Positions 2,389 through 60,354 of a stretch of DNA of 64,000 nt are shown here, one piece after another. The stretch is taken from assembly GCA_046262255.1 (NCBI GenBank), contig JBHENB010000005.1, positions 350-64,349 on the forward strand, in the 5' to 3' direction. A model generated the notes under the pieces. That model saw only the letters and a program-made list of their open reading frames with translations, was not told where the DNA came from and did not search any database. The translations under genes and the position numbers were made by a program. Position 1 is the first letter of the stretch. Each line of letters begins with the position of its first letter. This stretch comes from Chitinophagaceae bacterium. GTDB taxonomy: Bacteria > Bacteroidota > Bacteroidia > Chitinophagales > Chitinophagaceae.

Positions 2389-2414
2389 GTCCCCCTTTTA
2401 GGGGGACAGGGGGC
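2389..2414. repeat. GC-rich palindromic element end (right-end type)
   Basis: GTCCCCCT-ttt-AGGGGGAC perfect 8-bp hairpin followed by AGGGGGC; same layout as the 3' end of the metG insertion. Confidence 0.75.
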
Positions 2415-2415
2415 A

Positions 2416-3408
2416 TCACCCCAAATCAATATCCGTATTATCTCCAATATTCAATGTCCTCGTTTCCCCGCGAATTCCGGTATCGCTACCAATGATGGAG
2501 TAATCCAGGACAATGTCAAATAAGTTAGAAAAAGATCCAATGATCGAATTTTTTATAATAGAGGAATCTACGGTAGTATTTTCACCAATAGTTACATTAG
2601 GGCCAATAATAGAATTATGTATATCGCACCCGCTACCAATACGAACAGGTTGGATAATAACAGTATTATCATAAGCCTGGGAAGACATGATGCTTCCGCC
2701 AAACTTTTTCAACAGGGTTGCATTCGACTCCAGCAGTGTTTCTTTTTTCCCGCAATCAAACCAACTTTCTACTTTAAAAGCCCTGAAGTGTGCTCCTTGT
2801 TTTATCATACAATCCAGCGCATCGGTAATACTGTATTCTCCGTGTGTACGTAAGCCGTTTTTAATAATACTATCCAGACATTGAAACATCAGTTCCGATT
2901 CTTTTATTTTATAAACGCCCACCAGAGCCATGTTGGATTTTGGTATTTGTGGTTTTTCAATAACGTGCATCACTTTACCATCAAAATCAATTTCTGCTAC
3001 CCCAAAACTCCTCGGGTCATCTACTTTTTTTACTCCCAGCATAGAATGAGGGCTGTTTATTACTTCCTGTACATCGTACTCACAAATGGTATCGCCAAGC
3101 ACCACAAACATGTCATCGCCTGCAATAATATTACGTGTTAGTTTTAAAGCATGTCCAATGCCCTGCCTGTCATTTTGATACACAAAGTGAGCCTCCAGTG
3201 TGGGATAATTCAACTTTACATAATCCTGAATCTTTTCACCCAGATAGCCAACAATAAATATATATTCTTCAATCCCGGCTTGCCTTAGCTGATCAATAAT
3301 AATCCCTAGTACTGTTCTACCTGCCAGTGGTATTAATGCTTTTGGTTGCGTGTATGTGTGGGGTCGTAGTTTAGTTCCGGCACCTGCTACAGGTATAATT
3401 GCTTTCAT
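2416..3408 (-). CDS. Sugar-phosphate nucleotidyltransferase (long-form glucose-1-phosphate thymidylyltransferase type)
   Basis: AGAGTKLRPHT and PKALI motifs, EKP motif, C-terminal hexapeptide-repeat-like region. Confidence 0.9.
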   Translation of the reverse strand: MKAIIPVAGAGTKLRPHTYTQPKALIPLAGRTVLGIIIDQLRQAGIEEYIFIVGYLGEKIQDYVKLNYPTLEAHFVYQNDRQGIGHALKLTRNIIAGDDMFVVLGDTICEYDVQEVINSPHSMLGVKKVDDPRSFGVAEIDFDGKVMHVIEKPQIPKSNMALVGVYKIKESELMFQCLDSIIKNGLRTHGEYSITDALDCMIKQGAHFRAFKVESWFDCGKKETLLESNATLLKKFGGSIMSSQAYDNTVIIQPVRIGSGCDIHNSIIGPNVTIGENTTVDSSIIKNSIIGSFSNLFDIVLDYSIIGSDTGIRGETRTLNIGDNTDIDLG

Positions 3409-3716
3409 CCATAAATGTTTTGATGAGCCTGGCGCACTTTTCTATAACACGTTCCATCATGAACAATAATTCTACACGATATAGAAAGAAGGTAACGAAA
3501 TTACTGTTTTTTAAAATGGAACAAAAACAAAACAATCCTGTTATTCAATGTTGCACATACTTATTTTTGTGAGTGCTATAGTGTTACCAGCGCAAGTATT
3601 ACTATTGTACTTCGTTGCGTCGCACTCTTGTACGCTTTTCACTTTACGCAGCAGCGTTATCAATTATTCTTCATTCTTCAATAGATGCTTTGCATTTTAT
3701 AGAATGAGGGATTAAA

Positions 3717-3739
3717 TCCGCTTCAGGGCGGAATGGGGG
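3717..3739 (+). repeat. Degenerate right-end palindrome directly upstream of glyA
   Basis: TCCGC-ttcagg-GCGGA hairpin followed by ATGGGGG, ending 4 nt before the ATG. Confidence 0.5.
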
Positions 3740-3743
3740 TATT

Positions 3744-5024
3744 ATGAAAAGAGACACATTGGTTTTCGACCTTATTAAAAAAGAACTGGAACGGCAGCGC
3801 AACGGCATTGAATTAATTGCATCGGAAAATTTTGCTTCGCTGCAGGTAGTACAGGCAATGGGCAATGTAATGACAAATAAGTATGCAGAAGGTTATCCCG
3901 GCAAACGTTATTACGCCGGCTGCGAATTTGTTGACCAGACAGAACAATTAGCAATTGACCGGGTAAAGCAAATTTTTAATTGTGCTTATGCTAATGTGCA
4001 ACCGCATGCCGGTGCTCAGGCCAATGCAGCAGTAATGCTTGCAGTATTAAAACCGGGCGATAAGATTCTTGGTCTGGATTTAAGTATGGGCGGCCACCTT
4101 ACCCACGGTTCGCCTGTGAACTTCAGTGGTAAATTATACCAGCCGCTTTTTTATAGTGTACGCAAAGAAACCGGTCTGGTAGATTATGAACAACTGGAAG
4201 AACTGGCACGCCACGAAAAGCCAAAATTAATCATGTGTGGTGCTTCTGCTTATAGCCGCGATTGGGATCACAAACGCATCCGTGCTGTGGCCGATGAAAT
4301 AGGCGCATTTGTAATGGCAGATATTGCACATCCTGCAGGGTTAATAGCAAAAGGATTGATGTCTTCACCTTTTGATAATTGCCATTTTGTAACATCCACT
4401 ACGCATAAAACCTTGCGTGGCCCCCGTGGCGGTTTAATTCTGATGGGAAAAGATTTTGAAAATCCAATGGGCTTAAAAGATCCGAAAGGAAATTTACGCA
4501 TGATGAGCCATGTGCTGGATATGGCTGTGTTTCCAGGCACCCAGGGAGGCCCGCTCGAACACATAATCGCATCGAAAGCTATAGCCTTCGGAGAAATATT
4601 ATCGGATGAATTTACGCAGTATGCACAGCAGATTCAACGAAATGCACAGGCTATGGCGAAAGTTCTTGTTGCAAAAGATTACAACATTATCAGCGGCGGT
4701 ACAGAAAATCATTTAATGCTGATTGATCTGCGTAATAAAAATATTACGGGTAAAAAAGCACAGGAAACGCTGGACAAAGCACGTATAACAGTTAATAAAA
4801 ACGCAGTACCTTTTGATGATAAAAGTCCGTTTGTAACATCTGGTATTAGAATAGGGGTACCGGCTATCACCACACGGGGCATGAGGGAAGAGCACATGCA
4901 AACTGTTGTTGATTTTATAGATAATATTTTATTGCATTTAGATGATGAAGCTTTGCACAAGAAAACCAGTGATGAAGTACATCAGTTTATGCAGCAATTT
5001 CCCCTATATCCGGAATTAAATTAA
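3744..5024 (+). CDS. glyA: Serine hydroxymethyltransferase
   Basis: [21 protein letters not shown] and [12 protein letters not shown] (PLP lysine) motifs. Confidence 0.99.
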
Positions 5025-5034
5025 ATTATTATAT

Positions 5035-5451
5035 ATGCTACAACGTTTACAAAGTGTATGGTTATTCCTTGCCACTATTTTTAATGCAGTAACTTTCCGG
5101 TTTCCATTCTACAGCGGTGATTGGATGAAAGATTCCACACCTTATGTAATCGACCTGAATGCCCTTACAACCACCTGGCTAACTATTTTAACTGTGCTTA
5201 CTGCAGCACTGGCTTTTATTACCATCTTTTTATTTGACAACCGCAAGTTGCAATTGAAGCTATGTTATCTGGGCATTTTTATCACCGCGGTGCTTATTAC
5301 AATGTATTTCCTGGAGATTGGTAATTTTTATACTGGCACAGTAGCCATTTGGGCAGTTTTTTATTTTGCCATTCTATGTTGTTTTATACTTGCTGCAAGA
5401 GGGGTATGGAAAGATGAGAAACTGGTAAAGAGCATGGACCGGCTTAGATAG
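5035..5451 (+). CDS. DUF4293-family membrane protein
   Basis: MLQRLQSVWL N-terminus, four hydrophobic segments, DEKLVKSMDRLR C-terminus. Confidence 0.8.
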   Translation: MLQRLQSVWLFLATIFNAVTFRFPFYSGDWMKDSTPYVIDLNALTTTWLTILTVLTAALAFITIFLFDNRKLQLKLCYLGIFITAVLITMYFLEIGNFYTGTVAIWAVFYFAILCCFILAARGVWKDEKLVKSMDRLR

Positions 5452-5685
5452 CAGATGTAAGGCATTTTTTGTAGTTTGTCAGCCTGCGGACCTACAGGTT
5501 CAGTAATAGCGGGTCCTGTTAATGGAGCACAAGGCACTATAAGATACTCATGGACCAATGCCTCCGGAACTGTTGTAAAGATCAGCCTAAAGATGTTTAT
5601 GTATATACAGTAACGGCCATTATGGACGATCGTTCTGTTATTCATAAAAAAGGCGCCATTATATTACTTCGTTGATGAGAATGGG

Positions 5686-8559
5686 TCAGAGAAACCCTGC
5701 AGTATAGCTTTTTTTCACTTTTTTCAATCCTTCAGGCTTGCCTGCATAAACTAAATAACCTCCATTATCACCTGCTTCAGGCCCTAAATCAATAACCCAG
5801 TCAGCGCTTCTTATTACATCCATGTTGTGTTCAATAACAATAACAGAGTGCCCTTGTTCTATTAAAGCATTAAAAGAAACGAGTAATTTTTTTATATCGT
5901 GAAAGTGAAGACCCGTAGTTGGCTCATCAAAAATAAATAACACTTTACCTGCTGCTTTTCCTTTCCCTAAAAAAGAAGCAAGCTTTACGCGTTGTGCTTC
6001 GCCACCAGAGAGAGTGCCTGAAGATTGTCCCAATTTTACGTAGCCTAACCCGACTTCGCTTAATGGTTTTATTGCGGTAATAATTGCAGCCTCCGTCTTG
6101 CCTGTAACAGATGAAAAAAATTCAAGCGCTTCATCCACACTCATTTCCAAAACATCAAACACATTCTTTCCATTAAACTGTACTTCCAGCACTTCTTCCT
6201 TGAATTTTTTGCCATGGCAAACTTCACAGGTTAGATGTACATCTGCTAAAAATTGCATCTCAACAATCTTTTCACCTTCTCCTTTGCATGCATCACACCT
6301 GCCACCATCAACATTAAATGAAAAATGTTTTGGCTGAAAGCCCCGCATTTTGCTTAAAGGCTGTGCAGCAAACAAATCCCTTATACAATCCCATGCTTTA
6401 ATGTAGGTTACCGGGTTACTCCGTGATGATTTTCCAATGGGATTCTGATCCACCATTTCAACTTGTGTAATGGCATCCACATCGCCACGGATAGTTTTAT
6501 GAAAACCAACCTTATCAGCAGCTTCACCTTTTAATTTTTGTAATGCCGGATAAAGAATGTGTTTAATGAGCGTTGTTTTTCCGCTACCACTTACTCCGCT
6601 AACAACACACAATGCTTTTAAGGGGAATTCAACTGTAATGTTTTGTAAATTATGCTGTCGTGCTCCTTCTATAACAAGAGATTGATTCCACTTTCTTGTT
6701 TGTTTTGGGGCATCAATAGATAACTCACCATTTAAATATTTGCCTGTTAAACTTTTTTTAGTGCTAATAATATCCTTGTACTTCCCGCTTGCTACAATTT
6801 CACCTCCAAGGTGAGAAGCCAGTGGCCCCATATCAATAATGTAATCCGCTTCCCGCATCATCATTTCGTCATGTTCCACTACTACAACCGTGTTTCCCAA
6901 ATCCCTTAGCTCCTTTAAAACACGAATTAAATTCTGCGTATCTCTTGAATGCAGTCCAATAGAAGGTTCATCTAAAATATATAAAGAGTTGGTTAGATTA
7001 CTCCCGAGACTTCTTGTTAATTGTATCCTCTGGCTTTCACCACCGCTTAATGTATTAGCAAGCCGGTTCAGGGTTAAATATCCAAGACCTACTTTCAGCA
7101 AAGTATCTATACGATGAACTATTTCAATCTGAATACGCCTGGCTATTTCCTTCTCAAAATCATTGAAACTGGTAGCTGCTTTTTCAAACCAACTTTTAAG
7201 GTCTGTGATTGACATTAGGCTTAATTCACCGATATGTTTTCCATAAATTTTTACATATAAGGCTTCTTTACGCAAACGATACCCATTACAGTCTGGACAG
7301 CTAGTACGGCCGCGATAGCGACTCAATAAAACACGGTATTGAACCTTATATAAATTTCGCTCTACTTCCTTAAAGAAATCATCAATGCCATAAACATATT
7401 GGTTGCCTTTCCATAAAGTATTGTATTGCTCCGGCGCTAGATCTGCAATTGGTGTATGTACAGGAAAATTAATTTTGCGGGAAGCTTTTATGAAATGTTC
7501 TTTCCATTTACCCAGCTTCTCTCCTTTCCATGGAGCCACTGCACCTTCATAAACACTTAATGATTTATCAGGAATAACAAGGTCTTCATCTATTCCCAAC
7601 ACCATAGAAAAACCTTCGCAGGTTGGGCATGCTCCAAATGGATTATTGAAAGAAAATAGATTTGGAACCGGCTCCTCAAAAACTATCCCATCCAGCTCAA
7701 ACCGGTTGTTGAAGTGCAACAATTTTTTTCCTCCACCGGCCGATTCGACTTCGACATATACATCTCCTTCCCCTTCATAAAATGCAGTACCAATGGAATC
7801 GCTTAAGCGATGCTCATCGTCCTCATCCAATTCTTTTGCAACAATTCTGTCAATCAACACACCTCCTCCCATTAAAGGTGAGTTGGCAGTTTTGCGTGGG
7901 GACGATAATTTGGCCTTCAATTCATCGTCACTTAATTCGAGTAAGTCTTCGATCCTGTAAACTACGGAAAAATTTGGAGCGACCACCCTCGCAAAACCCT
8001 TTTGCATCAGTATGTTTAGTTCTTCCTTTACATCTCTGCTTCGATGTTGTTTGAATGCAGACAGAATATACACTTTACTGCCTGGCTGTAATTGTTTAAT
8101 AGCATTAAGTACATCCTTTACATCGTCTTTCTTCACCTCCCGGCCCGATGCAGGCGAAATAGTTTTTCCAACACGAGCAAAAAGCAAACGCAGGTAATCA
8201 TAAATTTCGGTCATGCTTCCAACAGTACTTCGGGGTGTGCGGGTAATAACTTTTTGCTCAATTGCAATTGCGGGTGAAAGCCCTTTGATGTAATCTACAT
8301 CGGGTTTGTCCATGCGGTTCAGGAATTGCCGTACGTAGGCACTTAAACTTTCAGCGTAGCGCCGCTGCCCTTCAGCATATAAAGTATCAATAGTAAGCGA
8401 TGATTTTCCGGAACCGGAAACACCTGTAACTACAATAAATTTGTTACGGGGAAAAGTAACATCAATGTTTTTTAAATTATGTACCCGTGCACCTTTAATA
8501 AAAATATCGTTGCCAGAATTTTTCGTTGATACATTTAATACTTGCTCCTGTTGTTTCAT
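5686..8559 (-). CDS. uvrA: Excinuclease ABC subunit A (Bacteroidota second-type UvrA)
   Basis: Two ABC ATPase modules ([32 protein letters not shown]) and Zn-finger CxxC motifs. Confidence 0.97.
7861..7903 (-). repeat. Degenerate palindromic element inside uvrA (encodes [14 protein letters not shown])
   Basis: Minus strand reads gtcccca...CTCACCtttaatGGGAGGAGGT, resembling a right-end hairpin plus G-rich tail. Confidence 0.45.
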
Positions 8560-8567
8560 GTACGCCG

Positions 8568-8575
8568 CAAATGTA
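8568..8575 (-). promoter_or_regulatory. Bacteroidota -7 promoter element upstream of uvrA
   Basis: TACATTTG matches TAnnTTTG, 8 nt upstream of the ATG at 8559. Confidence 0.55.
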
Positions 8576-9732: not shown

Positions 9733-10164
9733 ATGAATACTGAACCATTATCCGCATATCATTTTATTGTTGACTGGGGAGGTGCCAATGGCGCTTTCTC
9801 AGAAATTTCCGGACTTAGCATAGAAAATGAAGTAATTGAATATAGAAATGGTAATTCAACAACACAGCAGGCTACAAAAATGCCCGGCCTGCGCAAATAC
9901 AGCAATATTACCCTTAAACGGGGTTTAACAAAGGGTGATACAGATTTTTACAAGTGGCTTAATACAGTTAATCTTAATAAGGTGGAAAAAAGAAATGTTA
10001 CTATTAGTTTGTTGAATGAAAACCATGAACCTGTTCGTGTATGGAAAGTAAGAAATGCATGGCCGTGTAAAATTTCCGGACCTCACTTAAAAGCAGACGG
10101 AAATGAAGTGGCTATTGAAACAATAGAATTAGCACACGAGGGGTTAGAAATTGAAGATGTTTGA
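9733..10164 (+). CDS. T4 gp19-like tail tube protein (Afp1/Afp5-type, contractile injection system)
   Basis: FSEISGL, EVIEYRNG, KMPGLRKYSNITLKRG, WKVRNAWP.KISGP and GNEVAIETIELAHEG are tube-protein signatures. Confidence 0.92.
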   Translation: MNTEPLSAYHFIVDWGGANGAFSEISGLSIENEVIEYRNGNSTTQQATKMPGLRKYSNITLKRGLTKGDTDFYKWLNTVNLNKVEKRNVTISLLNENHEPVRVWKVRNAWPCKISGPHLKADGNEVAIETIELAHEGLEIEDV

Positions 10165-24007: not shown

Positions 24008-24157
24008 ACTTCCTGCACAAAATAAAAACTTGTAATAGCAATTCAAAACAGTTTATCCGTTTACGGTAATTTCGCCACTGTCTTGTCATGTTGAAGAACA
24101 AAATCATTTTAGAAATAACTATACGATCCTCTGCAAATGATAAGCCGGTTACATAAA

Positions 24158-26833
24158 ATGAATCAACCTAAACGATACTTAATTACAGCCGCATTACCAT
24201 ATGCAAACGGTCAAAAACACATAGGGCATTTAGCCGGTGCATATTTGCCTTCAGATATCTATGTGCGGTACCTGCGGGCACAAAAGAGAGATGTGGTTTT
24301 TATTTGTGGCAGTGATGAACATGGTACCGCCATCCCCATCCAGGCAATGAAAGAAGGCACAACGCCTCAGGCTATCATTGATAAGTACCACTTGCAGATA
24401 AAACAAAATTTTGAAGATCTATTTATTTCATTTGATATATACGACCGCACAAGTAATCCTGTACACCACGATACAGCCCAGGAATTTTTTACTTACCTGA
24501 ATGACAGAGGTGAACTGGACATAAAAGAAACAGAACACTATTTCGATGAACAGGCACAAACATTTTTAGCCGACAGGTATATAAAGGGCACCTGTCCTAA
24601 TTGTGGTTTTAACGGGGCTTTTGGCGATCAATGTGAAAAATGCGGAACATCATTAAGTCCTGATGAATTGATAAATCCTGTAAGTACATTAAGCGGAAAT
24701 AAACCAATAAAAAAAGCTACAAAACACTGGTATCTGCCACTTAACAAACATGAAGAATGGCTTCGCACCTGGATACTTACTGAACATAAGGACTGGAAGA
24801 CCAATGTATTTGGTCAATGCAAAAGCTGGCTGGATACCGGTTTGCAACCCAGAGCGGTTACAAGAGATCTGGACTGGGGAGTGAAGGTACCAAGCCCCCC
24901 CACCCCCCAAAGGGGGGATTTAGCATCCACACAAAGCCAGCTTGCGAAAGAGCACTATAAATATGCAACAGCAGATCCGCTGCAATATTCTTTATTAAAA
25001 GAGTTTGTGAAAACGCATAGAAGTCAACCGACAGAAGCGGAAAGAGTTTTGTGGGAAATGCTCAGAGGGAAAAAACTTGAAGGCTATAAATTCAGACGTC
25101 AACATATAATAGGAACTTTTATCGCAGATTTTTTTTGCTTGTCTAAAAAATTAATTATTGAAGTGGATGGGCTAACTCATCAATTACCTGAAAATAAAAT
25201 AAATGATGAAGAGAGAACTAAATGGTTGAATGAAAACGGCTACGAAGTAATCCGTTTCACAAATAATGAAGTTTTACTTAATACTGAAGGAGTATTAAAT
25301 ACACTTCTGCACAAGCTACAAATATTACCAAATCACAAAACCAATGATGAAGATGCAAAAAGAGAGGTTAGTGCGGATGCTGAATTCCCCCTTCGGGGGG
25401 ACTTAGGGGGGCTGAGCGGAAAGGTCCTCTACGTGTGGTTTGATGCACCAATAGGCTACATCAGTGCAACAAAGCAATGGGCTTTAAATACAGGAAAAGA
25501 CTGGAAATCGTACTGGCTGGATAAAGAAACCAAACTGGTACATTTTGTTGGCAAGGATAATATCGTTTTCCATTGCATCATTTTCCCTGTAATGCTAAAG
25601 TTGCATGGCTACATTCTTCCCGATAACGTTCCTGCAAATGAGTTCATGAATTTAGAAGGTGATAAAATGAGTACCAGCCGAAACTGGAAGCTGGACATGC
25701 AGGATTACATTGATGATTTTGTAAAGAAAGAAAATGGCGGTCCTGCAATGGTGGACGCCTTGCGTTACTATTTAACTACTATATTGCCGGAAACAAAAGA
25801 CAGTGAATTTACCTGGAGAGGGTTTCAGGATGCAGCAAATAGTGAGTTGGTAGCTGTATTTGCCAACTTCGTTAATAGAACATTTGTGTTGATGCACAAA
25901 CTGTGTAAAGGAAAAGTGCCGAAGTTTCATAAGGATAGTGCTGATGAGAAAGACCAGGCATTGATTGAAGAGATCAAAGCATCAAAAACTAAAATAGAAA
26001 ATGCATTAGAACAATACAAATTTCGGGATGCTCTTTTTGGAGTGATAGACCTGGCACGAAGTGGAAACAAATACCTGCAGGAAAAGGAACCGTGGAAAAA
26101 AGCCTCAAGCGATAAGACGCAAGCTACAAGTGAGGAAAATCAAATACTTGTTGACAATTGCCTTCATGTGTGCTTACAGCTTTCTGCTAACCTTGCAATT
26201 TACATAAATCCCTTTCTTCCAAACATCGCAAAGAAAATTTGCCACATGATGAAGGTTGTAGATAAAATGTTGGAGTGGGAAAATGCTGGTAAGCTGAACT
26301 TACTGAGTGTAGGTTATTCTCTGCGGGCACCTGAACTATTATTCAGAAAAATTGAAGATACCGAAGTACAGCATCAAATTGAAAAATTAAAACAAGGATT
26401 AGAAAGATCAAAAATGGAAAAAAAGAACCAACCGACAAATAGCAATGAGCAAACAAATCAAAGTTCTGGAAGCGAGCATGCTCAATCTGCAATCTTAAAT
26501 CTTAAATCTGAAATTGTTTATGATGATTTTGCAAAGCTGGACTTACGCATTGGCACTATAACAGCAGCAGAAAAAGTAAAAAAAGCAGACAAACTCTTAA
26601 AGCTGGAAGTGGATCTTGGTTTTGAAAAAAGAACAATAGTTTCAGGCATAGGGCAGCATTTTCAGCCCGATTCACTCTTGAATAAACAGGTAATACTTGT
26701 AGCTAATCTTGCACCACGAAAAATGAGAGGAATTGAAAGCCAGGGAATGATCCTTACTGCTGAACAGCCCGATGGGAAGCTGATCCTGGTAAGCCCCGAT
26801 GCCATTACAAACAATGGCTCGGAGGTTCGTTAA
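24158..26833 (+). CDS. metG: Methionine--tRNA ligase with in-frame DUF559 endonuclease insertion and C-terminal tRNA-binding domain
   Basis: PYANGQKHIGH (HIGH), Zn knuckles CPNC/CEKC, KMSTS, C-terminal Trbp111-like domain; ~175-codon insert between WGVKVP and GKVLYVWFD. Confidence 0.97.
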   Translation: MNQPKRYLITAALPYANGQKHIGHLAGAYLPSDIYVRYLRAQKRDVVFICGSDEHGTAIPIQAMKEGTTPQAIIDKYHLQIKQNFEDLFISFDIYDRTSNPVHHDTAQEFFTYLNDRGELDIKETEHYFDEQAQTFLADRYIKGTCPNCGFNGAFGDQCEKCGTSLSPDELINPVSTLSGNKPIKKATKHWYLPLNKHEEWLRTWILTEHKDWKTNVFGQCKSWLDTGLQPRAVTRDLDWGVKVPSPPTPQRGDLASTQSQLAKEHYKYATADPLQYSLLKEFVKTHRSQPTEAERVLWEMLRGKKLEGYKFRRQHIIGTFIADFFCLSKKLIIEVDGLTHQLPENKINDEERTKWLNENGYEVIRFTNNEVLLNTEGVLNTLLHKLQILPNHKTNDEDAKREVSADAEFPLRGDLGGLSGKVLYVWFDAPIGYISATKQWALNTGKDWKSYWLDKETKLVHFVGKDNIVFHCIIFPVMLKLHGYILPDNVPANEFMNLEGDKMSTSRNWKLDMQDYIDDFVKKENGGPAMVDALRYYLTTILPETKDSEFTWRGFQDAANSELVAVFANFVNRTFVLMHKLCKGKVPKFHKDSADEKDQALIEEIKASKTKIENALEQYKFRDALFGVIDLARSGNKYLQEKEPWKKASSDKTQATSEENQILVDNCLHVCLQLSANLAIYINPFLPNIAKKICHMMKVVDKMLEWENAGKLNLLSVGYSLRAPELLFRKIEDTEVQHQIEKLKQGLERSKMEKKNQPTNSNEQTNQSSGSEHAQSAILNLKSEIVYDDFAKLDLRIGTITAAEKVKKADKLLKLEVDLGFEKRTIVSGIGQHFQPDSLLNKQVILVANLAPRKMRGIESQGMILTAEQPDGKLILVSPDAITNNGSEVR
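24893..25413 (+). mobile_element. Putative palindrome-bounded element encoding a DUF559/Vsr-like endonuclease domain, in frame with metG
   Basis: TEAERVLWEMLR, FRRQHIIG, IADF, IIEVDG..H, D..RTKWL...GYEVIRF motifs. Ends are AGCCCCCC (24893-24900) and GGGGGGCT (25406-25413), each beside an internal hairpin. Confidence 0.8.
26100..26134 (+). repeat. Heptamer tandem array inside metG
   Basis: AAGCCTC-AAGCGAT-AAGACGC-AAGCTAC-AAGTGAG, period 7, same AAG family as 9372-9399. Confidence 0.6.
26484..26515 (+). repeat. Heptamer tandem array in the metG linker
   Basis: AATCTGC-AATCTTA-AATCTTA-AATCTGA-AATT. Confidence 0.65.
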
Positions 26834-30933: not shown

Positions 30934-33357
30934 ATGGCCAAACGAATAATCAAAAAAGTTGCAGTATTAGGTAGTGGAGTTATGGGCTCAAGAATTGCCT
31001 GTCATTTTGCAGGCATCGGCTTACAGGTTCTTTTGCTGGATATTGTGGCCCCTTCTGACTCCCCCGAACGGGAAGAAATAAAGGCCCAAAGAAATAAAAT
31101 AGTCAATGACTCGTTAGCTGCAGCAATTAAGTCTAATCCCTCACCTGTTTATTATAAAGATGTAGTAAACCGCATTACAACGGGAAATTTTGATGACAAC
31201 CTGAAAGACATTGCCGACTGCGATTGGGTAATTGAAGTGGTGGTGGAAAGATTGGATATTAAACGTTCCCTGTATGAGAAAGTAGAACAATTCAGAAAAC
31301 CAGGAACATTAATTACATCCAACACTTCCGGCATACCTGTAACTATGCTAAGTGAAGGAAGAAGCGATGATTTTAAAAAACACTTTTGCGGCACACACTT
31401 TTTTAATCCCCCAAGATACCTGCGGTTACTGGAAATAATCCCTACCGTTCATACCAATGCGGAGGTAACTAATTTCTTAATGTATTACGGCGATTTGTAT
31501 TTAGGTAAAACCACTGTTCTTGCAAAAGACACTCCTGCATTCATTGCCAACCGTATTGGCGTATTTGGTATTATGTCAGTTTTTCAGTTAGTAGAAAAAC
31601 TTGCTTTATCCATTGATGAAGTAGATGCATTAACAGGGCCAGTTATCGGGCGCCCAAAGTCAGCAACGTTTAGAACTGCAGATGTAGTGGGTATTGACAC
31701 ATTGGTAAAAGTGGCCAAAGGTGTTTATGAAAATTGCCCCCACGACGAAGCAAGAAACATTTTTATAATACCAGAATGGCTTGACAAAATAGTTTCTAAC
31801 AACTGGTTGGGTGATAAAACAGGCCAGGGATTTTTTAAAAAAATGCCCCCATCTCCTAAAGGGGAGAAAGAGATTCATGTTTTGAATCTTTCAACTCTTG
31901 AGTACGAACCCCGCCAAAAACCAGGGTTTGCTTCCTTAGATGCCGCCAAGCCTGTGGAGGATTTAAAACAGCGGTTAAAAATGCTGATGGCGGCGCAGGA
32001 TAAAGCTGGTGAATTCTACCGTCACCTGCACTATGGGTTATTCTCTTATGTGTCGCACCGCATTCCTGAAATCAGTGATGAAATATACCGTATTGACGAT
32101 GCCATGAAGGCCGGTTTCGGGTGGGAAATTGGTGCTTTTGAAAGCTGGGATGTGTTAGGCGTTGAAAAAGTAGCGAAAGAGATGCAGAATGCCGCCCGCC
32201 CGGATGATCCACTTGGACGGGGATACAAAGTTGCAGAATGGGTGGAAGATATGCTGGCAAAAGGAATCAAATCTTTTTACACAGAAGAAAATGAAGTAAG
32301 GAAAGCCTATTCACCTTTTAATAAAGGTACTGAAAAGACAGAGGTTCCCCAATTCTCCTCTTCTATCAGGGGAGGACGGGAGGGGGATAATCTTGTTTGG
32401 AAAAACGCCAGTTGCCATGTTTATAACATTGGTGATGATGTTCTGAGGCTTCAGTGGAATACAAAAATGAATAGTATTGGCGGAGATGTTTTAAGTGGAA
32501 TAAACAAAGCAATTGAGCTGGCGGAAAAAGACTACAAGGGATTGGTGATTGCAAATAAAGGCGCCAACTTTAGTGCCGGCGCCAATGTCGGTATGATCTT
32601 CATGTATGCTATTGAACAGGAATTTGATGAACTGAATTTTGCCATACGCTTATTTCAAAATACGGCTATGCGCATCCGCAATTCTTCTGTTCCTGTTGTA
32701 GTGGCTCCGCATGGTTTAACCTTAGGTGGCGCTTCTGAAATTTGCTTACACAGCGATAAAGCATGTGCGGCAGCAGAAACGTATGCAGGACTGGTGGAGT
32801 TGGGTGTAGGCCTTATCCCCGGTGGGGGTGGAACAAAAGAATTTGTACTCAGAGCCTCTGATGAAATGCACCAGGATGAACCGGAAACCATTACTTTAAA
32901 AAATCGGTTTTTAACCATCGCAACCGCAAAAGTGGGTACATCTGCCTTTGAAAGTTTAGAAATAGGAATTTTCAGAAAAGGCGTTGACGAAATAGTAATT
33001 AATGCGGACAGGCGTATTGAGGAAGCAAAAAAAGCGGTTATTGAATTGCACGACAGTGGGTATGTGATGCCGGTGCAGCGAAAGGATATTAAAGTTTTAG
33101 GACGAAGCGCATTGGGTGCATTGTACTCCGGTATCCACGGCATGTGGCGTGCAGGGTATGCAACAGATCACGATGCATTGGTTGCAAAAAAATTAGCTTA
33201 TGTTATGTGCGGCGGCGACCTCAGTGAACCCTCTTTAGTAAGTGAACAATATTTGCTGGACCTGGAACGGGAAGCTTTTTTATCTCTTTGCGGTGAAAGA
33301 AAAACGCTGGAACGGATTCAAAGTGTACTAAAAAGCGGTAAACCAATTCGCAATTAA
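30934..33357 (+). CDS. 3-hydroxyacyl-CoA dehydrogenase / enoyl-CoA hydratase (FadN-like)
   Basis: VLGSGVMG, EVVVERLDIK, SNTSG and HFFNPPRY motifs; C-terminal crotonase domain (FSAGAN, ELGVGLIPGGGG). Confidence 0.95.
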   Translation: MAKRIIKKVAVLGSGVMGSRIACHFAGIGLQVLLLDIVAPSDSPEREEIKAQRNKIVNDSLAAAIKSNPSPVYYKDVVNRITTGNFDDNLKDIADCDWVIEVVVERLDIKRSLYEKVEQFRKPGTLITSNTSGIPVTMLSEGRSDDFKKHFCGTHFFNPPRYLRLLEIIPTVHTNAEVTNFLMYYGDLYLGKTTVLAKDTPAFIANRIGVFGIMSVFQLVEKLALSIDEVDALTGPVIGRPKSATFRTADVVGIDTLVKVAKGVYENCPHDEARNIFIIPEWLDKIVSNNWLGDKTGQGFFKKMPPSPKGEKEIHVLNLSTLEYEPRQKPGFASLDAAKPVEDLKQRLKMLMAAQDKAGEFYRHLHYGLFSYVSHRIPEISDEIYRIDDAMKAGFGWEIGAFESWDVLGVEKVAKEMQNAARPDDPLGRGYKVAEWVEDMLAKGIKSFYTEENEVRKAYSPFNKGTEKTEVPQFSSSIRGGREGDNLVWKNASCHVYNIGDDVLRLQWNTKMNSIGGDVLSGINKAIELAEKDYKGLVIANKGANFSAGANVGMIFMYAIEQEFDELNFAIRLFQNTAMRIRNSSVPVVVAPHGLTLGGASEICLHSDKACAAAETYAGLVELGVGLIPGGGGTKEFVLRASDEMHQDEPETITLKNRFLTIATAKVGTSAFESLEIGIFRKGVDEIVINADRRIEEAKKAVIELHDSGYVMPVQRKDIKVLGRSALGALYSGIHGMWRAGYATDHDALVAKKLAYVMCGGDLSEPSLVSEQYLLDLEREAFLSLCGERKTLERIQSVLKSGKPIRN
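31048..31075 (+). repeat. Left-end-like palindrome in FadN-like gene (APSDSPERE)
   Basis: GCCCC-ttctgac-TCCC-ccgaac-GGGA. Confidence 0.5.
31845..31867 (+). repeat. Left-end-like palindrome in FadN-like gene (PPSPKGE)
   Basis: GCCCCC-A-TCTCC-taaagg-GGAGA, same layout as the metG left end GCCCCCCC-A-CCCCCC-aaa-GGGGGG. Confidence 0.65.
32194..32221 (+). repeat. Short palindromic insert in FadN-like gene (RPDDPLGR)
   Basis: CCCGCCC-ggatgatccactt-GGACGGG imperfect hairpin; 24-nt in-frame peptide between AA and GYKV. Confidence 0.55.
32305..32386 (+). repeat. Miniature two-ended palindromic element in FadN-like gene
   Basis: Left hairpin ACCTTT-taat-AAAGGT (32313-32328); right hairpin CTCCTCT-tctatc-AGGGGAG (32355-32374) followed by GACGGGAGGGGG. 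Confidence 0.6.
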
Positions 33358-51326: not shown

Positions 51327-51328
51327 AA

Positions 51329-53994: not shown

Positions 53995-54031
53995 TGCATA
54001 AAAAAATTATTACATCATCACCTTTTGCTAC

Positions 54032-55309
54032 CTATCTAAGCTTTAAAGTCACTATTGAGAACACTACACACCCTATAGTCACTATCCAAAAACGTGTTAC
54101 AATTTTTGCTTCATGATAACCCAGTTTTTGAAAATGATGATGCAACGGGCTCATTAAAAAAATGCGTCGCCCCTCACCATATTTTTTTCTTGTGTATTTG
54201 AAATAAGCAACTTGCATCATTACACTTATATTCTCCACCAGGAAAACTCCACAGAAAATGGGTATTAATAATTCTTTGTGTACAATGATGGCCAATGCCG
54301 CAATGATCCCCCCTAATGTTAAACTTCCCGTATCACCCATAAATACCTGCGCCGGGTAGGAGTTGTACCATAAAAAGCCAACACAACCTCCAATTAATGC
54401 ACCTATAAAAATGGATAGTTCTCCAAGATTAGGGATGTACATAATGTTCAGATAATCAGCAAAAAGCAGGTTACCGCTTGCATATGCAAAAATGCCAAGA
54501 CAGACGCCAATTAATGCTGATGTTCCTGTCGCCAATCCATCCAAACCATCCGCAATATTGGAACCGTTAGATACAGCAGTAATAATGAAAATGACGATAA
54601 GAATATAAAGTACCCAGGAGTAGTTCCGCAAACCTTCAGGTAATAACTTGGTATAGTTAAACTCGTGATTTTTTATAAAAGGAATGGTAGTAATTGGCTC
54701 CCTTACCGGAACAAAATGTTTAGTACGATTGTTTACCTCTCGTGTAATAACTTTTGTATCCCCCACCTTAGGAGTACCCTGGTATTCCCGCCAGATAATT
54801 ACATTATCATTAAAGTAAAGAGTAGCCCCAATGGCTATGCCCAACACTACCTGGCCAAAAACTTTAAACCAGGCTGCAAGTCCATCGTTACCCGCTTTTT
54901 TATACTCTAAACCTTTTTCATGTGCGAGCCTTTTAGACCGCAGTTTTAAATAGTCATCTATAAATCCAATTATTGCCAGCCATATTGTACTAAGAACCAT
55001 CAGGCGTACGTACACTTTCTCCAGGTTGGCCAATAAAAGAGTGGGGATAAGTATTGCCAGAATAATAATAATGCCGCCCATGGTGGGTGTACCTTTTTTT
55101 ATTTGCTCACCCGCCAGGCCAAGTTCCCTAACTGTTTCGCCTATTTGTCTGCGCTTAAGGATGTTTATTATTCTTTTTCCGATTAAGGTGGATATAATCA
55201 AAGACAGTATAACAGCCACTAACACCCGGAATGTTATAAACTGAAATAATGCACTTCCGGGGAACCGGTAGCCTTCAGCTTTAAACCATTCAAACAGGTG
55301 ATACAGCAT
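54032..55309 (-). CDS. mraY: Phospho-MurNAc-pentapeptide transferase
   Basis: [24 protein letters not shown] and PLHHHF motifs. Confidence 0.98.
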
Positions 55310-55315
55310 CGCTAT

Positions 55316-55343
55316 GTACGATTTACGATTTTAAATTTTAGAA
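55316..55343. repeat. Heptamer array between murE and mraY
   Basis: GTACGAT-TTACGAT-TTTAAAT-TTTAGAA. Confidence 0.5.
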
Positions 55344-55381
55344 TTACCCGCAACTATCATTTCTCTTTTGTCATCTACACC

Positions 55382-56848
55382 TTACTTTCCAAGCAATTCG
55401 AACATTTCCTTAAGCACTTCTTTATCATCAAAATGATTTTTTACGCCATTTACTTCCTGATATTTTTCATGTCCTTTACCAGCTATTAAAACAATATCTT
55501 CTGGTTGTGCTACGCTTACTGCTGTTTTAATGGCTTGTTTTCTATCTGGTATAGAAACATATTTTCTTTTTGCTGCAGTATTCAGTCCTGCTTCCATGTC
55601 TTTTATTATTTGAAATGGATCTTCTGTTCGTGGATTGTCGGAAGTAAAAATTACTCTATCACTATGCTCACAGCTTACCTGCCCCATTACAGGTCTTTTG
55701 GTTCTGTCTCTGTCGCCACCACAGCCAACTACAGTGATAACCTGTTCAAAGCCTTTTTTTAATTTTTTTATTGTGCCTAACACGTTCAGCAAGGCGTCGG
55801 GTGTATGTGCATAATCAACAATGCCAATTACTTTTTCTTTTGGTGAAATAGTATAATCAAATCTTCCTTCGGCACCTGTTAAACTACTTAAGCATTGCAA
55901 TACCTGCTGCCTGGCTTCTCCTAAAGCAATAGCTGCAGCATAAACGGCCAGCAGGTTGTATGCATTAAATTCACCTATCAAAAGAAAATGAACTTCCTGA
56001 TCATTAATGGTCATTACTAAACCTGAAAGGGTGTTTTCTAATATTTTCCCTTTGAAATCTGCAGCGGTGCGGAGGCTGTATGTATATTTTTTAGCCGCTG
56101 TATTTTGCAACATCACCATACCACGTTTATCATCCATGTTGGTGACTGCAAATGCTGCAGAAAGCAGAGTATCGAAAAATTGTTTTTTTGTTTTTATGTA
56201 TTCGTCGAATGTTTTATGGTAATCTAAATGTTCATGGGTAATGTTGCTAAATATTGCGCCGGCAAACTCTATTCCTGCAATTCGCCTTTGATGTATAGCA
56301 TGAGAGCTCACCTCCATAAAAACATGTGAGCACCCTTCATTGGCCATTTGCTTTAGTAATGCATTTAAACTAACAGCATCTGGGGTTGTATGGGTTGAAG
56401 AAATTGCTCTTCCCCCAATTCGGTTCTCAACTGTACTGATGAGGCCACATTTGTAACCAAGCGTTGTAAATAATTTATAGAGAAGCGTAGCAATAGTTGT
56501 CTTCCCGTTTGTTCCGGTTACCCCTGTTAATTTTAATTGGTGTGAAGGCTGGTCGAAATAATTATGTGCAATGTAACCAGCAGCCTCTGCGCTGTTATTG
56601 GTTTGCACATAGGTAACATTTGGAAGTTGACTATATGGCTGTGTTTCGCAAACAACAGCGGCAGCACCTTTCTGTATTGCTGCATCAATAAACAGATGAC
56701 CATCAGATGCAGAACCTTTTACTGCAATAAACAAACTGCCCTGCTGTATTCTGCGTGAATCTATTTGTACATCAGACACGGTTATATCTGTACTGCCTGC
56801 AAGGGCAGTAATGTGTACTTTATATAATATGTCCGACAATTTTTTCAC
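55382..56848 (-). CDS. murE: UDP-MurNAc-tripeptide synthetase
   Basis: TGTNGKTT, MEVSSH, DYAHTPD and DNPR motifs (DNPR indicates m-DAP specificity). Confidence 0.98.
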   Translation of the reverse strand: MKKLSDILYKVHITALAGSTDITVSDVQIDSRRIQQGSLFIAVKGSASDGHLFIDAAIQKGAAAVVCETQPYSQLPNVTYVQTNNSAEAAGYIAHNYFDQPSHQLKLTGVTGTNGKTTIATLLYKLFTTLGYKCGLISTVENRIGGRAISSTHTTPDAVSLNALLKQMANEGCSHVFMEVSSHAIHQRRIAGIEFAGAIFSNITHEHLDYHKTFDEYIKTKKQFFDTLLSAAFAVTNMDDKRGMVMLQNTAAKKYTYSLRTAADFKGKILENTLSGLVMTINDQEVHFLLIGEFNAYNLLAVYAAAIALGEARQQVLQCLSSLTGAEGRFDYTISPKEKVIGIVDYAHTPDALLNVLGTIKKLKKGFEQVITVVGCGGDRDRTKRPVMGQVSCEHSDRVIFTSDNPRTEDPFQIIKDMEAGLNTAAKRKYVSIPDRKQAIKTAVSVAQPEDIVLIAGKGHEKYQEVNGVKNHFDDKEVLKEMFELLGK

Positions 56849-58956
56849 TAATTCAATAAAATAGTTACTGTTTGATTGTTTGTGACCGGAGTGCCGGGAG
56901 CAATAGTTTGTGTAACTACTTTTCCTTTTCCTTTAGCTACTACTTTTAACTTTCTGGTTTCTAAAATGTATAAGGCATCTTTTAAACTCATATTCATCAA
57001 ATGAGGCATTGTAGTTTTAGAATAAAAATTGGCTTTTACAACAGGCTCCTGATAACTTGTTGTCATCCTACTCCATTGACTTCTTGCTGAAGAATCTTTG
57101 TAGTGCACTTGTAAAAAATTCAACACATTTTTTATATCCGTTGTACTTCCGGTGTAGGTATACAGCAAGCTATCCTGAACAGTTTGTAATGGTGTACTCT
57201 TTTTCTTCTGTACATACAAAGCATATAATTTATCCGCTACTTCCTTAAATACCGGTGCCGCTAACTGACCGCCATAATGTAAAGGAGCATGTGGTTTTGT
57301 TTTGATCAAAACGATACAGGAATATTCGGGCTGGTCAGCCGGGAAGTACCCTACAAAAGACGCCTGGTACACACCGTCATGATACTTCACATTGCCACCT
57401 GCTACGTGTGCAGTGCCCGTTTTGCCGGCAACAGAGTAAGGCGATCCTTCAAAAACTCTTTTTGCAGTGCCTTCCGTAACTACGGCTTCCATACATTGCC
57501 GGGCTGCTGCCACTACACCCGATTTGCAAATATTTTCTTCTATAACGGTGGGAGTAAATTCCTGAAGGGTTACCCCATTATTTTTAATACTATTTACCAG
57601 GTATGGCTGCATCTGCTTTCCATTGTTGGCTATAGCATTATAAAGCATCAATGTGTGCAATGGGCTTACTTCAATAGCATAGCCAAAACTCATAGTCACC
57701 ATTGCATGTAAACCTTCTGTATTACGCTTCCATTTTGGTAAAACAGGCATCTCTTCACCAACTAGTCCAACACCGGTTCTTTTATTTAGCCCAAAGCGAT
57801 GCAGATACTTTTTAAACTCGTCCGGCTCACTTGCAAAAGCTTTATACGCCAGTTTGCTCATGCCTACATTGGAGCTGTGTGCAAAACATTCTTTAACTGT
57901 TAATATTGGTTTTGGTGAACGCTCCGCATCTGTAACATTACGTACTCCTACATATGCATTACCTCTGGAGCCTACTTCTACTTCGTCATCTACTTTGCTG
58001 TTTCCTGATTCCAATACAGCAAGTAAAGTGGCCAGTTTCATAGTAGAACCTGGTTCTGTCGTCTGTAAAGCATAATTTAAGCTTTCATCATATTCACCAT
58101 TAGCATTCCTTCCGAGGTTCGCAATAGCTTTAATTTTTCCAGTTTTGGTTTCCATCACGATGCAGGTGCCGTATTGAGATTCGCTCTGCACCATCATTTT
58201 CATCAGTGCATTTTCTGCAATGTCCTGTATGTTCACATCCAGTGTGGTATTAATGTCTTTTCCATTTTCCGGTTCAATTTCATATCCTTCAACAGGAACA
58301 TAAGCACCGCCGGAAATAAATCGAACCAAACGCTTACCTGTAGTACCTTTTAATAATGTATCATAGGTTCTTTCCAGCCCCACATTCTGAGCATTCTCCC
58401 TGGAAAGACCAATAGTTCTTCTTGCCAATAATCCAAATGGATTTAGCCTTTTGCTTTTAACTTCTGCAATAACTCCGCTTTGATTGCGCCCTAATCTTGC
58501 TAAAGGAAATTCTCTGAAAACTTTATACTGTTCAAATGAAAGGCCTTTTCTGAGTAAGTAATAACGACTTTTTGCCGTGTAGCCTTTATTGAGGTCTCTT
58601 TTATACTCAGCAACAGTTTTATCATTAAAATAATTGGCAAGCGCAAGTGCAAATGAGTCAACATTTTTTTTAAACCTGCGGCCGTTTTTGTCTCTTAACC
58701 CTTCTGCAGCAAAGTCTATGTAAATATCAAAATAAGGAATTGATGTGCTAAGCATTTGTCCATCCTCGCTGTAAATAGTACCACGCTCTGCATCCAATTC
58801 TATAAATTTTTGATGCATACTGTCGCTCATATTACGCCAGTGCTCACCCTGAAACTTTTGAATGTAAAATGCCCTTCCTAAAACAAAAAAACTCAATAAA
58901 ACAATTCCAATAAAACTCAGGTACACCCTCCATAATATGTCACGTTTTATTTCCAT
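56848..58956 (-). CDS. ftsI: Penicillin-binding protein 3 (FtsI) with PASTA domain
   Basis: STMK (SxxK), SSN (SxN) and KTG motifs; C-terminal PASTA. Confidence 0.95.
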   Translation of the reverse strand: MEIKRDILWRVYLSFIGIVLLSFFVLGRAFYIQKFQGEHWRNMSDSMHQKFIELDAERGTIYSEDGQMLSTSIPYFDIYIDFAAEGLRDKNGRRFKKNVDSFALALANYFNDKTVAEYKRDLNKGYTAKSRYYLLRKGLSFEQYKVFREFPLARLGRNQSGVIAEVKSKRLNPFGLLARRTIGLSRENAQNVGLERTYDTLLKGTTGKRLVRFISGGAYVPVEGYEIEPENGKDINTTLDVNIQDIAENALMKMMVQSESQYGTCIVMETKTGKIKAIANLGRNANGEYDESLNYALQTTEPGSTMKLATLLAVLESGNSKVDDEVEVGSRGNAYVGVRNVTDAERSPKPILTVKECFAHSSNVGMSKLAYKAFASEPDEFKKYLHRFGLNKRTGVGLVGEEMPVLPKWKRNTEGLHAMVTMSFGYAIEVSPLHTLMLYNAIANNGKQMQPYLVNSIKNNGVTLQEFTPTVIEENICKSGVVAAARQCMEAVVTEGTAKRVFEGSPYSVAGKTGTAHVAGGNVKYHDGVYQASFVGYFPADQPEYSCIVLIKTKPHAPLHYGGQLAAPVFKEVADKLYALYVQKKKSTPLQTVQDSLLYTYTGSTTDIKNVLNFLQVHYKDSSARSQWSRMTTSYQEPVVKANFYSKTTMPHLMNMSLKDALYILETRKLKVVAKGKGKVVTQTIAPGTPVTNNQTVTILLN

Positions 58957-58965
58957 TGGAGTTGC

Positions 58966-59307
58966 TTATTTTGAATTTATATAATTATTGTCCAGTAATA
59001 CTACCGGTGCTGTGGTTAGCTCCTTTAAACCCAATGGCTCAACAGCTTTAATTAATTCACTTTGCTTGCTTCTGAACAGCGCATCTCCTTTAACCATTTT
59101 ATACTCGTACTGCAGCTCTTTTAATTCTTTGGAAGTTCTTGCAATGTCCCTGCTAAACCGGTCTGCGTAATGACCGTTATAGATGTAAAGTATTGCCAGC
59201 AATGCCAGGAATAAAAAGAAGGGAATTTGTTCAACAATTGACTGATAGTTCAGTACCCTTTTCCATCGGGAATGCAATTCTTTTTCATTTTTAGCAGTTG
59301 TAATCAT
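58966..59307 (-). CDS. ftsL: FtsL-like cell division protein
   Basis: TM helix plus coiled coil, located between rsmH and ftsI. Confidence 0.85.
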   Translation of the reverse strand: MITTAKNEKELHSRWKRVLNYQSIVEQIPFFLFLALLAILYIYNGHYADRFSRDIARTSKELKELQYEYKMVKGDALFRSKQSELIKAVEPLGLKELTTAPVVLLDNNYINSK

Positions 59308-59352
59308 TACAGTTGTTAAGGTTAATCAAAGAATATTGAGATTTTCATTCGT

Positions 59353-60354
59353 TCATAACTTTTCAGCTAATCGCAGTTTTGCACTGCGGGATCTTGGATT
59401 TTTGGTTTTTTCTTGTTCTGTAGCTTCAATGGGTTTTTTATTAATTGCTTTCATAGGGTTGGATATTTTCTGGTTTTCAAAAGGATTATCATTTTGTATA
59501 TTGAAAGTTCCATCTCGGAAGAACCTTTTTACAAGTCTGTCTTCCAACGAGTGAAACGTAGTTATAGCTACTCTGCCGCCTGATTTTAGCACCTGTGGAA
59601 TTTGTTCCAGTAAATCTTTTAAAGCTCCCAGTTCATCATTAACTTCTATTCTCAACGCCTGAAATACCTGTGCAAAATATTTGTTCGGATTTCCTTTTAC
59701 CACGTAATGCACTGTCCTTTTAAATGCATCAATTGTTTGCAGTGGTTCGACCTGCCGGGCTTCTACAATTTTTTTTGCAAGTGTTTTAGCATTGGTTACT
59801 TCACCATATTGTTCAAACATTTTATGCAATTGTTGCTCTGTATAATTTTGAACCACCTCAAAAGCAGTAGTTGTTTGCCGCTGATCCATTCTCATATCCA
59901 GCTTAGCGTTGAACCGGGTAGAAAAACCCCGGTTGCTTTCATCTAACTGATGGCTGCTCACACCTAAATCCGCAAGTATTCCATCTACTTCATTTATCCC
60001 GTACAACTGCAAAAAGCGCTTCACATAACGGAAGTTGTGCGGTACAAACAACACGCGATCATCGTCTGGTATATTTTGTTTTGCATCTTCGTCCTGGTCA
60101 AAAGCTATTAATCGTCCATTAATATTTAACTTTTTTAGAATTGCTTTACTATGTCCTCCGCCGCCGAATGTGCAATCCACATAAATACCTTCTGGTTTAA
60201 TATTTAGTCCTTCCAGCACCTCATTTAACAGAACCGGAATATGGTATCTGGTAGTTAGAGATTTGTCCGAAAGGCTTGACCTTTGCAGGAAATTGGCCCC
60301 CATAACTCCTTTTGGAGAAAAGTGAGAACGTGACTTCTCCTTTTTCTTTTTCAT
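59353..60354 (-). CDS. rsmH: 16S rRNA m4C1402 methyltransferase with N-terminal extension
   Basis: HIPVLL, DCTFGGGGHS, DLGVSSHQ, FHSLEDR and NPRSRSAKLR motifs. Confidence 0.97.
   Translation of the reverse strand: MKKKKEKSRSHFSPKGVMGANFLQRSSLSDKSLTTRYHIPVLLNEVLEGLNIKPEGIYVDCTFGGGGHSKAILKKLNINGRLIAFDQDEDAKQNIPDDDRVLFVPHNFRYVKRFLQLYGINEVDGILADLGVSSHQLDESNRGFSTRFNAKLDMRMDQRQTTTAFEVVQNYTEQQLHKMFEQYGEVTNAKTLAKKIVEARQVEPLQTIDAFKRTVHYVVKGNPNKYFAQVFQALRIEVNDELGALKDLLEQIPQVLKSGGRVAITTFHSLEDRLVKRFFRDGTFNIQNDNPFENQKISNPMKAINKKPIEATEQEKTKNPRSRSAKLRLAEKL
60295..60320 (-). repeat. Degenerate right-end palindrome in the rsmH N-terminal extension (SPKGVMGA)
   Basis: Minus strand CTCC-aaaa-GGAG-TTATGGGGGCC, compare metG right end TCCCCC-ttcg-GGGGGA-CTTAGGGGGGCT. 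Confidence 0.6.

Follow-up and report, generated by a model that had tools for sequence, protein, structure and literature searches.

The DNA analyzed here (the window) is a 64,000-nucleotide stretch from a Chitinophagaceae bacterium, equivalent to C5:350-64349 of a 2.57-Mb assembly (150 contigs, 38% GC) whose nearest named relatives are Ferruginibacter and other Chitinophagaceae metagenome-assembled genomes; C-numbers such as C14, C24 or C26 denote contigs of this genome (G000), and G-numbers denote comparison genomes. Within the window, the gene metG (24137-26833) contains a cassette that encodes a DUF559 domain, and short GC-rich hairpins resembling the two ends of this cassette lie in or beside several other genes (Table 1). 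An initial annotation listed eight such hairpins as nuclease-less copies of the metG ends and proposed an autonomous DUF559 element with non-autonomous derivatives that remodel protein loops.

The metG insert matches Pfam DUF559 within the methionyl-tRNA synthetase (MetRS) sequence with an E value of 2.7e-34, PDB entry 3hrl with an E value of 7e-23 and, weakly, the homing nuclease I-Bth0305I (PDB 3r3p). Its left end consists of C7 (24895-24901), A, C6 (24903-24908), AAA and G6 (24912-24917), its right end consists of C5 (25387-25391), TTC, G6 (25395-25400), ACTTA and G6 (25406-25411), and together they make up an inverted repeat of 33 nt with 85% complementarity, in addition to the outer C/G runs. 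The site is empty in all 30 relatives searched, which read GVKVP-LPDAE-GKVLYVWFDAP, and the native LPDAE is replaced by the cassette in this genome. An AlphaFold2 model of MetRS with the insert, built from a 10-row alignment, reached a predicted local distance difference test (pLDDT) score of 47, too poor for loop mapping. Five DUF559 genes were found in the genome by tblastn, all of them bracketed by ends of the same layout but of different subfamilies. The full form is a cassette of ~500 bp that encodes only a DUF559 (Vsr-like PD-(D/E)XK) nuclease and lies in frame in a host gene, whose product would therefore carry an additional domain.

The initial annotation deduced from its eight copies that the metG ends belong to a dispersed family, and this proved correct. 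A hidden Markov model (HMM) built from 112 oriented ends and applied at a cutoff of E<10 gave 144 matches in the genome compared with 2 and 5 in two Markov-shuffled control genomes, and a profile of the full-length, ~150-nt B element described below gave 126 matches compared with 1 in a shuffled genome, which puts the enrichment over shuffled sequence at ~30- to 100-fold. The simple pattern CCCCC-N(2-7)-GGGGG occurs 57 times, compared with 3 occurrences of the mirrored control GGGGG-N-CCCCC (61 versus 1 in a separate recount of C5-loop-G5). The family is therefore real and, with >100 ends, much larger than first noticed. The conserved flanks of the C5/G5 hairpins define several subfamilies, namely A (GGCCCCCTGT-CCCCC-nnn-GGGGG-AACTTAGAT), B (GGCCCCCTCTAA-CTCCCCC-AAC-GGGGGAG), C (the metG type), D (CCCCCAT-CCCC-TAAA-GGGG) and G (with an 11-bp stem, at C64), and many solo ends are present alongside cassettes and miniature elements. 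Since the mixed profile of all ends missed the window copy at 32355 and scored the copy at 31048 weakly, family-specific profiles and short BLAST searches were needed in addition. It is of note that two DUF559 elements of family D (C26:18445-18890 and C3:46261-46735) lie directly 5' of the start codons of their host genes (an argB-like gene and a nucleotidyltransferase gene), and the right end of the C26 element (GGGGATGGGGGGAAA) may itself provide the host ATG.

The ends have a common layout, in which an outer pyrimidine run is followed by a spacer of 1 to 6 nt, a pyrimidine arm, a loop of 3 to 5 nt and a purine arm, and then by a subterminal inverted repeat. The outer run repeats the pyrimidine arm in mirror order, as in CCCCCTC-TAA-CTCCCCC-AAC-GGGGGAG and CCCCTCC-AA-CCTCCCC; a mirror copy with at most one mismatch was seen in 79 of 187 strand tests, compared with 34 for a direct copy, and these 79 correspond to ~85% of the informative hairpins on one side. 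Intrastrand-triplex motifs such as TMECO/boxC show this order of segments, and the triplex or hairpin may have a structural role. C- and G-runs cannot include stop codons and encode Pro and Gly in every frame, so that the ends could double as flexible linkers, the role that we propose for the Pro/Gly peptides.

The link between the cassettes and the shorter copies is provided by ~25 miniature elements of 130 to 150 bp (family B), in which ~70 nt from the left and ~80 nt from the right of a nuclease cassette are retained. Positions 70-148 of the B profile are matched by the right half of the metG cassette (E value of 1.6e-8), and positions 4-75 by the left end of the cassette in acs. When read as peptides, the B copies have one common junction, ...QDA(A/D)|INKNISISEVSAAD..., a junction that a cassette such as L075 would leave on losing its nuclease. 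The autonomous and non-autonomous forms postulated by the initial annotation are thus joined by elements that hold both terminal regions of the cassettes, including internal sequence. Long open reading frames (ORFs), among them metH, acs, gcvP, ileS and a miaB-like gene, hold 18 of the ~24 full B copies, all 18 of them in the sense frame of the nuclease and free of stops; antisense frames are often open too. Peptides of the type PNLPPTGEG... were at one point taken for reverse-orientation copies, an idea that was rejected when orienting every B copy gave the sense frame throughout. The inserts mostly replace native residues instead of simply adding to them, and both acs inserts are missing in 20 of 20 relatives. 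The proposal that empty ends left after nuclease loss remodel protein loops is upheld by these alignments, in which nuclease-less derivatives appear to take the place of native, probably surface-exposed loop residues in 18 long ORFs, as it is by metG, by acs and by the comparison with 16 orthologs of the FadB-like gene of the window, in which loops are replaced or extended and the frame is kept. As a separate observation on another contig of the genome, an ORF at C1:8280-8880 interrupts metH and divides it into C1:7074-8279 and C1:8881-11691; the inserted ORF encodes an ORF6N/KilA-N-like DNA-binding protein.

Related cassettes also occur beyond this genome. DUF559 matches are present in 61 of 151 genomes of the order, many of them within frames of 400 to 1,466 amino acids, and 80 loci with nucleases of 50-74% identity were collected from Chitinophagales, Flavobacteriales, Sphingobacteriales, Cytophagales, Bacteroidales and Ignavibacteria. 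Almost without exception, these 80 loci lie in frame at recurrent sites in metH, metG, ileS, acs, cinA and other genes: ~45 are in metH before KILLATVKGDVHDIG, ~10 are in metH at SLADFIKP|...|DYMGAFAVT, and ~11, in other Chitinophagaceae assemblies, are in metG at exactly the site used in the window. The host frame is open without stops at 80 of 80 and 17 of 17 cassette loci, and conservation of the nuclease motif D...E-x-D...H across 81 in-frame copies is at least 90%. A GC hairpin was found upstream of 71 and downstream of 70 of the 80 nucleases, compared with 32 of 299 control windows, and the hairpins flanking these loci comprise 16 to 17 distinct complementary (compensating) stems, which points to selection on nucleic acid structure and not on the peptide. 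In acs of G043, which belongs to a different genus, the junctions are identical to those of the present genome, and the site is empty in all 20 closer relatives. Conversely, ileS and one of the metH sites hold nuclease-less remnants in this genome and full cassettes in others. Taken together, the alignments show a large, structured repeat superfamily that varies between lineages, in which cassettes, miniature elements and solo ends are related to one another and which recurs at the same sites across taxa.

Of the eight copies listed for the window, four are demonstrable members of the family (2389, 31048, 31845 and 32355), one is ambiguous (7861), and three are unsupported (3717, 32305 and 60295). 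The solo end at 2389, located 2 nt past the stop codon of a nucleotidyltransferase gene (2416..3408, minus strand), is identical over 23 of 23 nt to C24:26249-26271, has 33 BLAST matches at E<1 and is found by the end profile with an E value of 0.06; a left partner was sought in 2030-2384 and was not found there. Three members lie in the FadB-like gene. At 31048, 27 of 31 nt agree with C14:10038-10068, the B profile gives an E value of 0.12, and the peptide resembles APSNSPERGE; the ortholog in G002, of the same genus, has a near-perfect B left end (GGCCCCCTCTAACTCGCCCAACGGGGGAGAA) at this site, where other congeners have unrelated native sequence. The end at 31845 agrees in 20 of 21 nt with each of the two ends of a DUF559 element on C26 (18443-18886) and has an end profile E value of 0.13. 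At 32355, the conserved native DFIILSNYQ is replaced in the ortholog alignment, GGGGAGGACGGGAGGGG is identical over 17 of 17 nt to C117:2529-2545, the right end of a miniature element, and 26 of 29 nt agree with C14:8021-8049.

Table 1. Features of the window considered in this study
Feature	Position (strand)	Description
Copy at 2389	2384..2416 (+)	Right end of family A, solo; 2391-2405 is the hairpin CCCCC-TTTTA-GGGGG, followed by ACA, GGGGGC
Copy at 3717	3717..3740 (+)	Hairpin TCCGC-TTCAGG-GCGGA + ATGGGGGT, just 5' of glyA start; not a demonstrable member
Copy at 7861	7861..7884 (-)	uvrA insertion ANSPLMGGG; 8-residue gap in 10 same-genus orthologs
metG cassette	24893..25417 (+)	DUF559 cassette, reference autonomous element; 525 nt, 175 codons, in frame
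Copy at 31048	31041..31079 (+)	Decayed family B left end in FadB-like gene, read as APSDSPEREE, in place of variable native loop
Copy at 31845	31845..31867 (+)	Family D end (GCCCCCATCTCCTAAAGGGGAG) in FadB-like gene, read as PPSPKGE; net +1 residue versus orthologs
Palindrome family E	32193..32222 (+)	GCCCGCCCGGATGA..GGACGGG in FadB-like gene; distinct small family, not listed by the initial annotation
Copy at 32305	32305..32345 (+)	Claimed left-end-like copy; unsupported
Copy at 32355	32355..32388 (+)	B-subfamily right end (CTCCTC..GGGGAGG ACG GGAGGGGG) in FadB-like gene, read as SSSIRGGREG
Copy at 60295	60295..60320 (-)	Claimed copy in rsmH 5' extension; unsupported, no profile or BLAST match
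Palindrome family F	62162..62182 (+)	CCTGCCTNCCGGTCAGGCAGG type in queA, read as QPTGQAG; distinct small family

For the remaining four sites we lean towards the view that they are ordinary hairpins or Pro/Gly-rich loops with a chance likeness to the ends, as none of them has a profile or BLAST match. At 32305, the peptide YSPFNKGTEK aligns with the native YDPASKAYK of the orthologs, which speaks against the claimed insertion; a two-ended mini element spanning 32305-32386 was also considered, and its left half was rejected on the same grounds. RsmH orthologs align only from residue ~32, and the SPKGVMG peptide of the copy at 60295 lies in an N-terminal extension common to none of them and is thus probably not translated. 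A chance likeness is less easily argued for 7861, which is a real insertion with an SP..GGG peptide like those of element right ends; it shows no significant nucleotide similarity to any family in profile or BLAST searches and is possibly a decayed right end, its membership being unproven. The hairpin at 3717 bears only a loose likeness to family D right ends and shares with those at C26 and C3 the position just 5' of a start codon, which likewise tells against pure chance. Close to 7861, uvrA (window 7900-8000, minus strand) is without 11 residues (...IAQKENPVNES...) that are present in all ten same-genus orthologs.

Two further palindrome families are represented in the window. Family E has ~21 genomic copies, several of them nested within family A elements, and its 9-residue ARPDDPLGR in the FadB-like gene is a true insertion, with a gap in the 16 orthologs. 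The family F copy in queA matches C4:47777, C65:8677 and C4:45702, with 18/18 and 24/26 nt identities, and the family has ~14 loci. F palindromes (CCTGCCTGCCGGTCAGGCAGG) repeatedly occupy precisely the short spacer that separates the outer run from the hairpin in triplex-type ends (C17:14899, C4:47774, C4:45705 and C12:36879) and appear to target it. Family A elements are intergenic, are 200 to 300 bp long (C49:13783-14085, C29:7670-7930, C93:2595-2875 and C10:42555-42830) and have a common internal box, GTGCGAC...CAACAGAAGTATCATAGTGGTACTTCTGTTGG, that is able to fold into a hairpin and within which E or F palindromes are nested, always at the same position. Elsewhere in the window, an isolated 143-amino-acid ORF (MNTEPLSAYHFIVDWGGANGAFSEISGL...) at 9733-10164 resembles a contractile-tail tube protein, and no other tail genes were seen among the ORFs of the window.

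We consider it probable that the demonstrable copies of the window are relics of a superfamily of small selfish elements, which would have spread by DUF559-driven homing and then decayed. According to this model, the nuclease would cut empty alleles and break repair would copy the cassette in, which would account for the identical junctions at the same metH, metG, ileS and acs sites in distant Bacteroidota. New sites may be seeded by ectopic repair, and miniature copies might be mobilized in trans or might likewise reach new sites through repair. Internal deletion would turn cassettes into miniature elements and then into solo ends, selection may trim the loop back towards its native length, and the triplex or hairpin ends could be DNA features needed by the nuclease or by the repair process. 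Several points weigh against this model. Nuclease-driven spread, through cutting of DNA by DUF559 and mobilization of the miniature elements, is inferred, and the inserts are presumed to be translated from their intact frames. At metG, acs and the FadB-like gene, target-site duplications were not seen and native residues are replaced instead, a pattern that fits break repair and is not diagnostic of it. The B copies are old (median pairwise identity of 53%, maximum of 76%, with many compensating stem changes) and thus give no sign of recent activity. In favor of the model, hairpin numbers (0 to 76 per genome in the 41 genomes of the genus, with control counts of at most 5) correlate with DUF559 numbers (Spearman rho of 0.73, P value of 8e-8), a comparison that the initial annotation had proposed. 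DUF559 is present in 14 of 14 genomes of the genus with at least 10 hairpins compared with 9 of 27 others, and in 10 of 11 hairpin-rich genomes of the order compared with 61 of 151 overall (Fisher P value of 5e-4). These values are not corrected for phylogeny, and G007, G009, G177, G186 and G083 have 5 to 8 hairpins and no DUF559 match.

These last genomes, together with the many solo ends, could also be explained if the triplex-type repeats were independent of the nuclease and spread by themselves via host replication or repair, as TMECO/boxC/PIT may do, with DUF559 homing into or beside them as a parasite and not as their mobilizer. Different nuclease lineages (40-69% identity) bear different end subfamilies, E. 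coli has 26 TMECO hairpins and one DUF559 gene, and no mobility gene was found at TMECO sites by Holder et al. (PMC4666352), all of which speaks for such independence. We nevertheless regard this explanation as unlikely, since the miniature elements hold cassette-derived sequence beyond the repeats on both sides and share one deletion junction, since different genera have cassette and ends joined to the same host sites by identical junctions, and since hairpin and DUF559 counts are strongly correlated. The peptides would not form part of host proteins at all if the inserts were removed by RNA splicing, translational bypass or protein splicing, and the stable GC hairpins flanking the insert could in principle join its ends. 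We judge this very improbable: the open frames of all cassette loci and genic B copies would be needless if the insert were removed as RNA, and a comparison of the window and of six family A elements with Rfam gave no match, introns and ribozymes included. Furthermore, Pfam finds only DUF559 in the insert and no Hint/intein domain, and the junction residues VP|SPP (VP|SPPTP) and LS|GKV (GGLS|GKV) lack intein nucleophiles. Homing by the DUF559 nuclease, followed by decay of the cassettes, thus remains our preferred explanation.

As a broader and more tentative suggestion, which we hold to be possible and would not press, DUF559 nucleases and mirror-repeat/hairpin termini might define an unrecognized class of mobile element that occupies a fourth niche for homing nucleases, namely unspliced in-frame insertion with self-encoded Pro/Gly linkers, and triplex repeats elsewhere, including the E. 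coli boxC/TMECO by ycjD, might be its non-autonomous relics. If true, in-frame palindromic repeats would gain an identified enzyme partner, a homing nuclease would have a way to live in essential genes that requires neither intron nor intein, and an origin would be at hand for the unexplained triplex-type repeats (boxC/TMECO/PIT). Such elements would also account for many unusual Pro/Gly-rich loops and differences in length among housekeeping proteins of Bacteroidota, a possible source of error in annotation and alignment, and their ends would constitute natural, frame-independent linker modules for domain insertion.

Among known systems, Rickettsia palindromic elements (RPEs), reportedly described by Ogata and colleagues in 2000 and 2002, are said to be short palindromic repeats that reside in frame in genes and are read through in loops. 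The present ends resemble them as in-frame palindromic repeats read as extra loop peptides whose copy number varies among related genomes, and the in-frame read-through typical of RPEs has its counterpart in the 18 full B copies in open frames, which are absent from orthologs. To our knowledge, RPEs have no autonomous partner or enzyme, and RPE-like elements have been without one for 25 years. The present elements differ in that they derive from DUF559 cassettes, have mirror-repeat/hairpin ends and reside in Bacteroidota; the sequences are probably unrelated, homology being unlikely given the different phylum and the GC-run ends.

Our literature searches yielded no account of coding genes that carry DUF559 cassettes or miniature forms derived from them, and the work on triplex repeats alone bears on the ends. 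The TMECO/boxC consensus is CCCTCNCCC-N3-6-GGGNGAGGG-N3-GGGNGAGGG (Holder et al. 2015, PMC4666352), and TMECO is described as always intergenic and without any mobility gene (PMC4666352). Like TMECO/boxC/PIT, the present ends have a C-rich arm, a loop, a G-rich arm, a short spacer and a second G-rich arm mirroring the first; they are dispersed, vary in copy number between close relatives and, in layout only, have the hairpin plus a third segment mirroring one arm that marks a triplex. Unlike TMECO, they are termini of nuclease cassettes and miniature elements, many lie in translated frames, and their triplex is only predicted. E. coli MG1655 has 26 TMECO hairpins, one of which is located 189 nt 3' of ycjD, the sole DUF559 gene (chance of ~0.005). 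In this region (NC_000913.3:1351200-1351830), the stop codon of ycjD is overlapped by a degenerate TMECO-like hairpin, and a duplicate of the gene's own 3' end follows before the motif 189 nt downstream, which is perfect. Six other E. coli TMECO hairpins lie in pairs 60 to 80 nt apart, like miniature elements.

With respect to the nuclease, the Vsr-like/EDxHD homing endonuclease lineage of I-Bth0305I has been grouped with DUF559 (PMC3424549), and the present nuclease belongs to the same fold group. In keeping with a homing endonuclease, the cassettes have an intact active-site motif and occupy the same sites in distant taxa that are empty in close relatives. Unlike I-Bth0305I-type genes, the present nuclease is neither in an intron or intein nor free-standing; it is in frame and unspliced, has Pro/Gly hairpin ends and gives rise to miniature derivatives. 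Inteins, which often carry a homing nuclease, insert selfishly and in frame into housekeeping proteins at conserved sites and are expressed from the host gene. The present cassette resembles them in being an in-frame selfish insertion at such sites that would be expressed from the host gene, but it has no Hint domain and no splice-junction residues and apparently stays in the protein. Finally, as in miniature inverted-repeat transposable elements (MITEs) and in repetitive extragenic palindromes with their associated tyrosine transposases (REP/RAYT), short non-autonomous copies with terminal inverted repeats or hairpins accompany a protein-coding autonomous partner, and the B copies have the size of MITEs (<300 bp) and have ends and subterminal sequence that match the metG and acs cassettes. 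Where MITEs have a target-site duplication and a transposase, native residues are replaced here and the partner encodes only DUF559; where REP/RAYT combines an HUH tyrosine transposase with extragenic palindromes, many of the present copies are intragenic. The partner in the present system is thus a PD-(D/E)XK nuclease and not a DDE or HUH transposase, and its copies reside largely in coding sequence, in one fixed frame.

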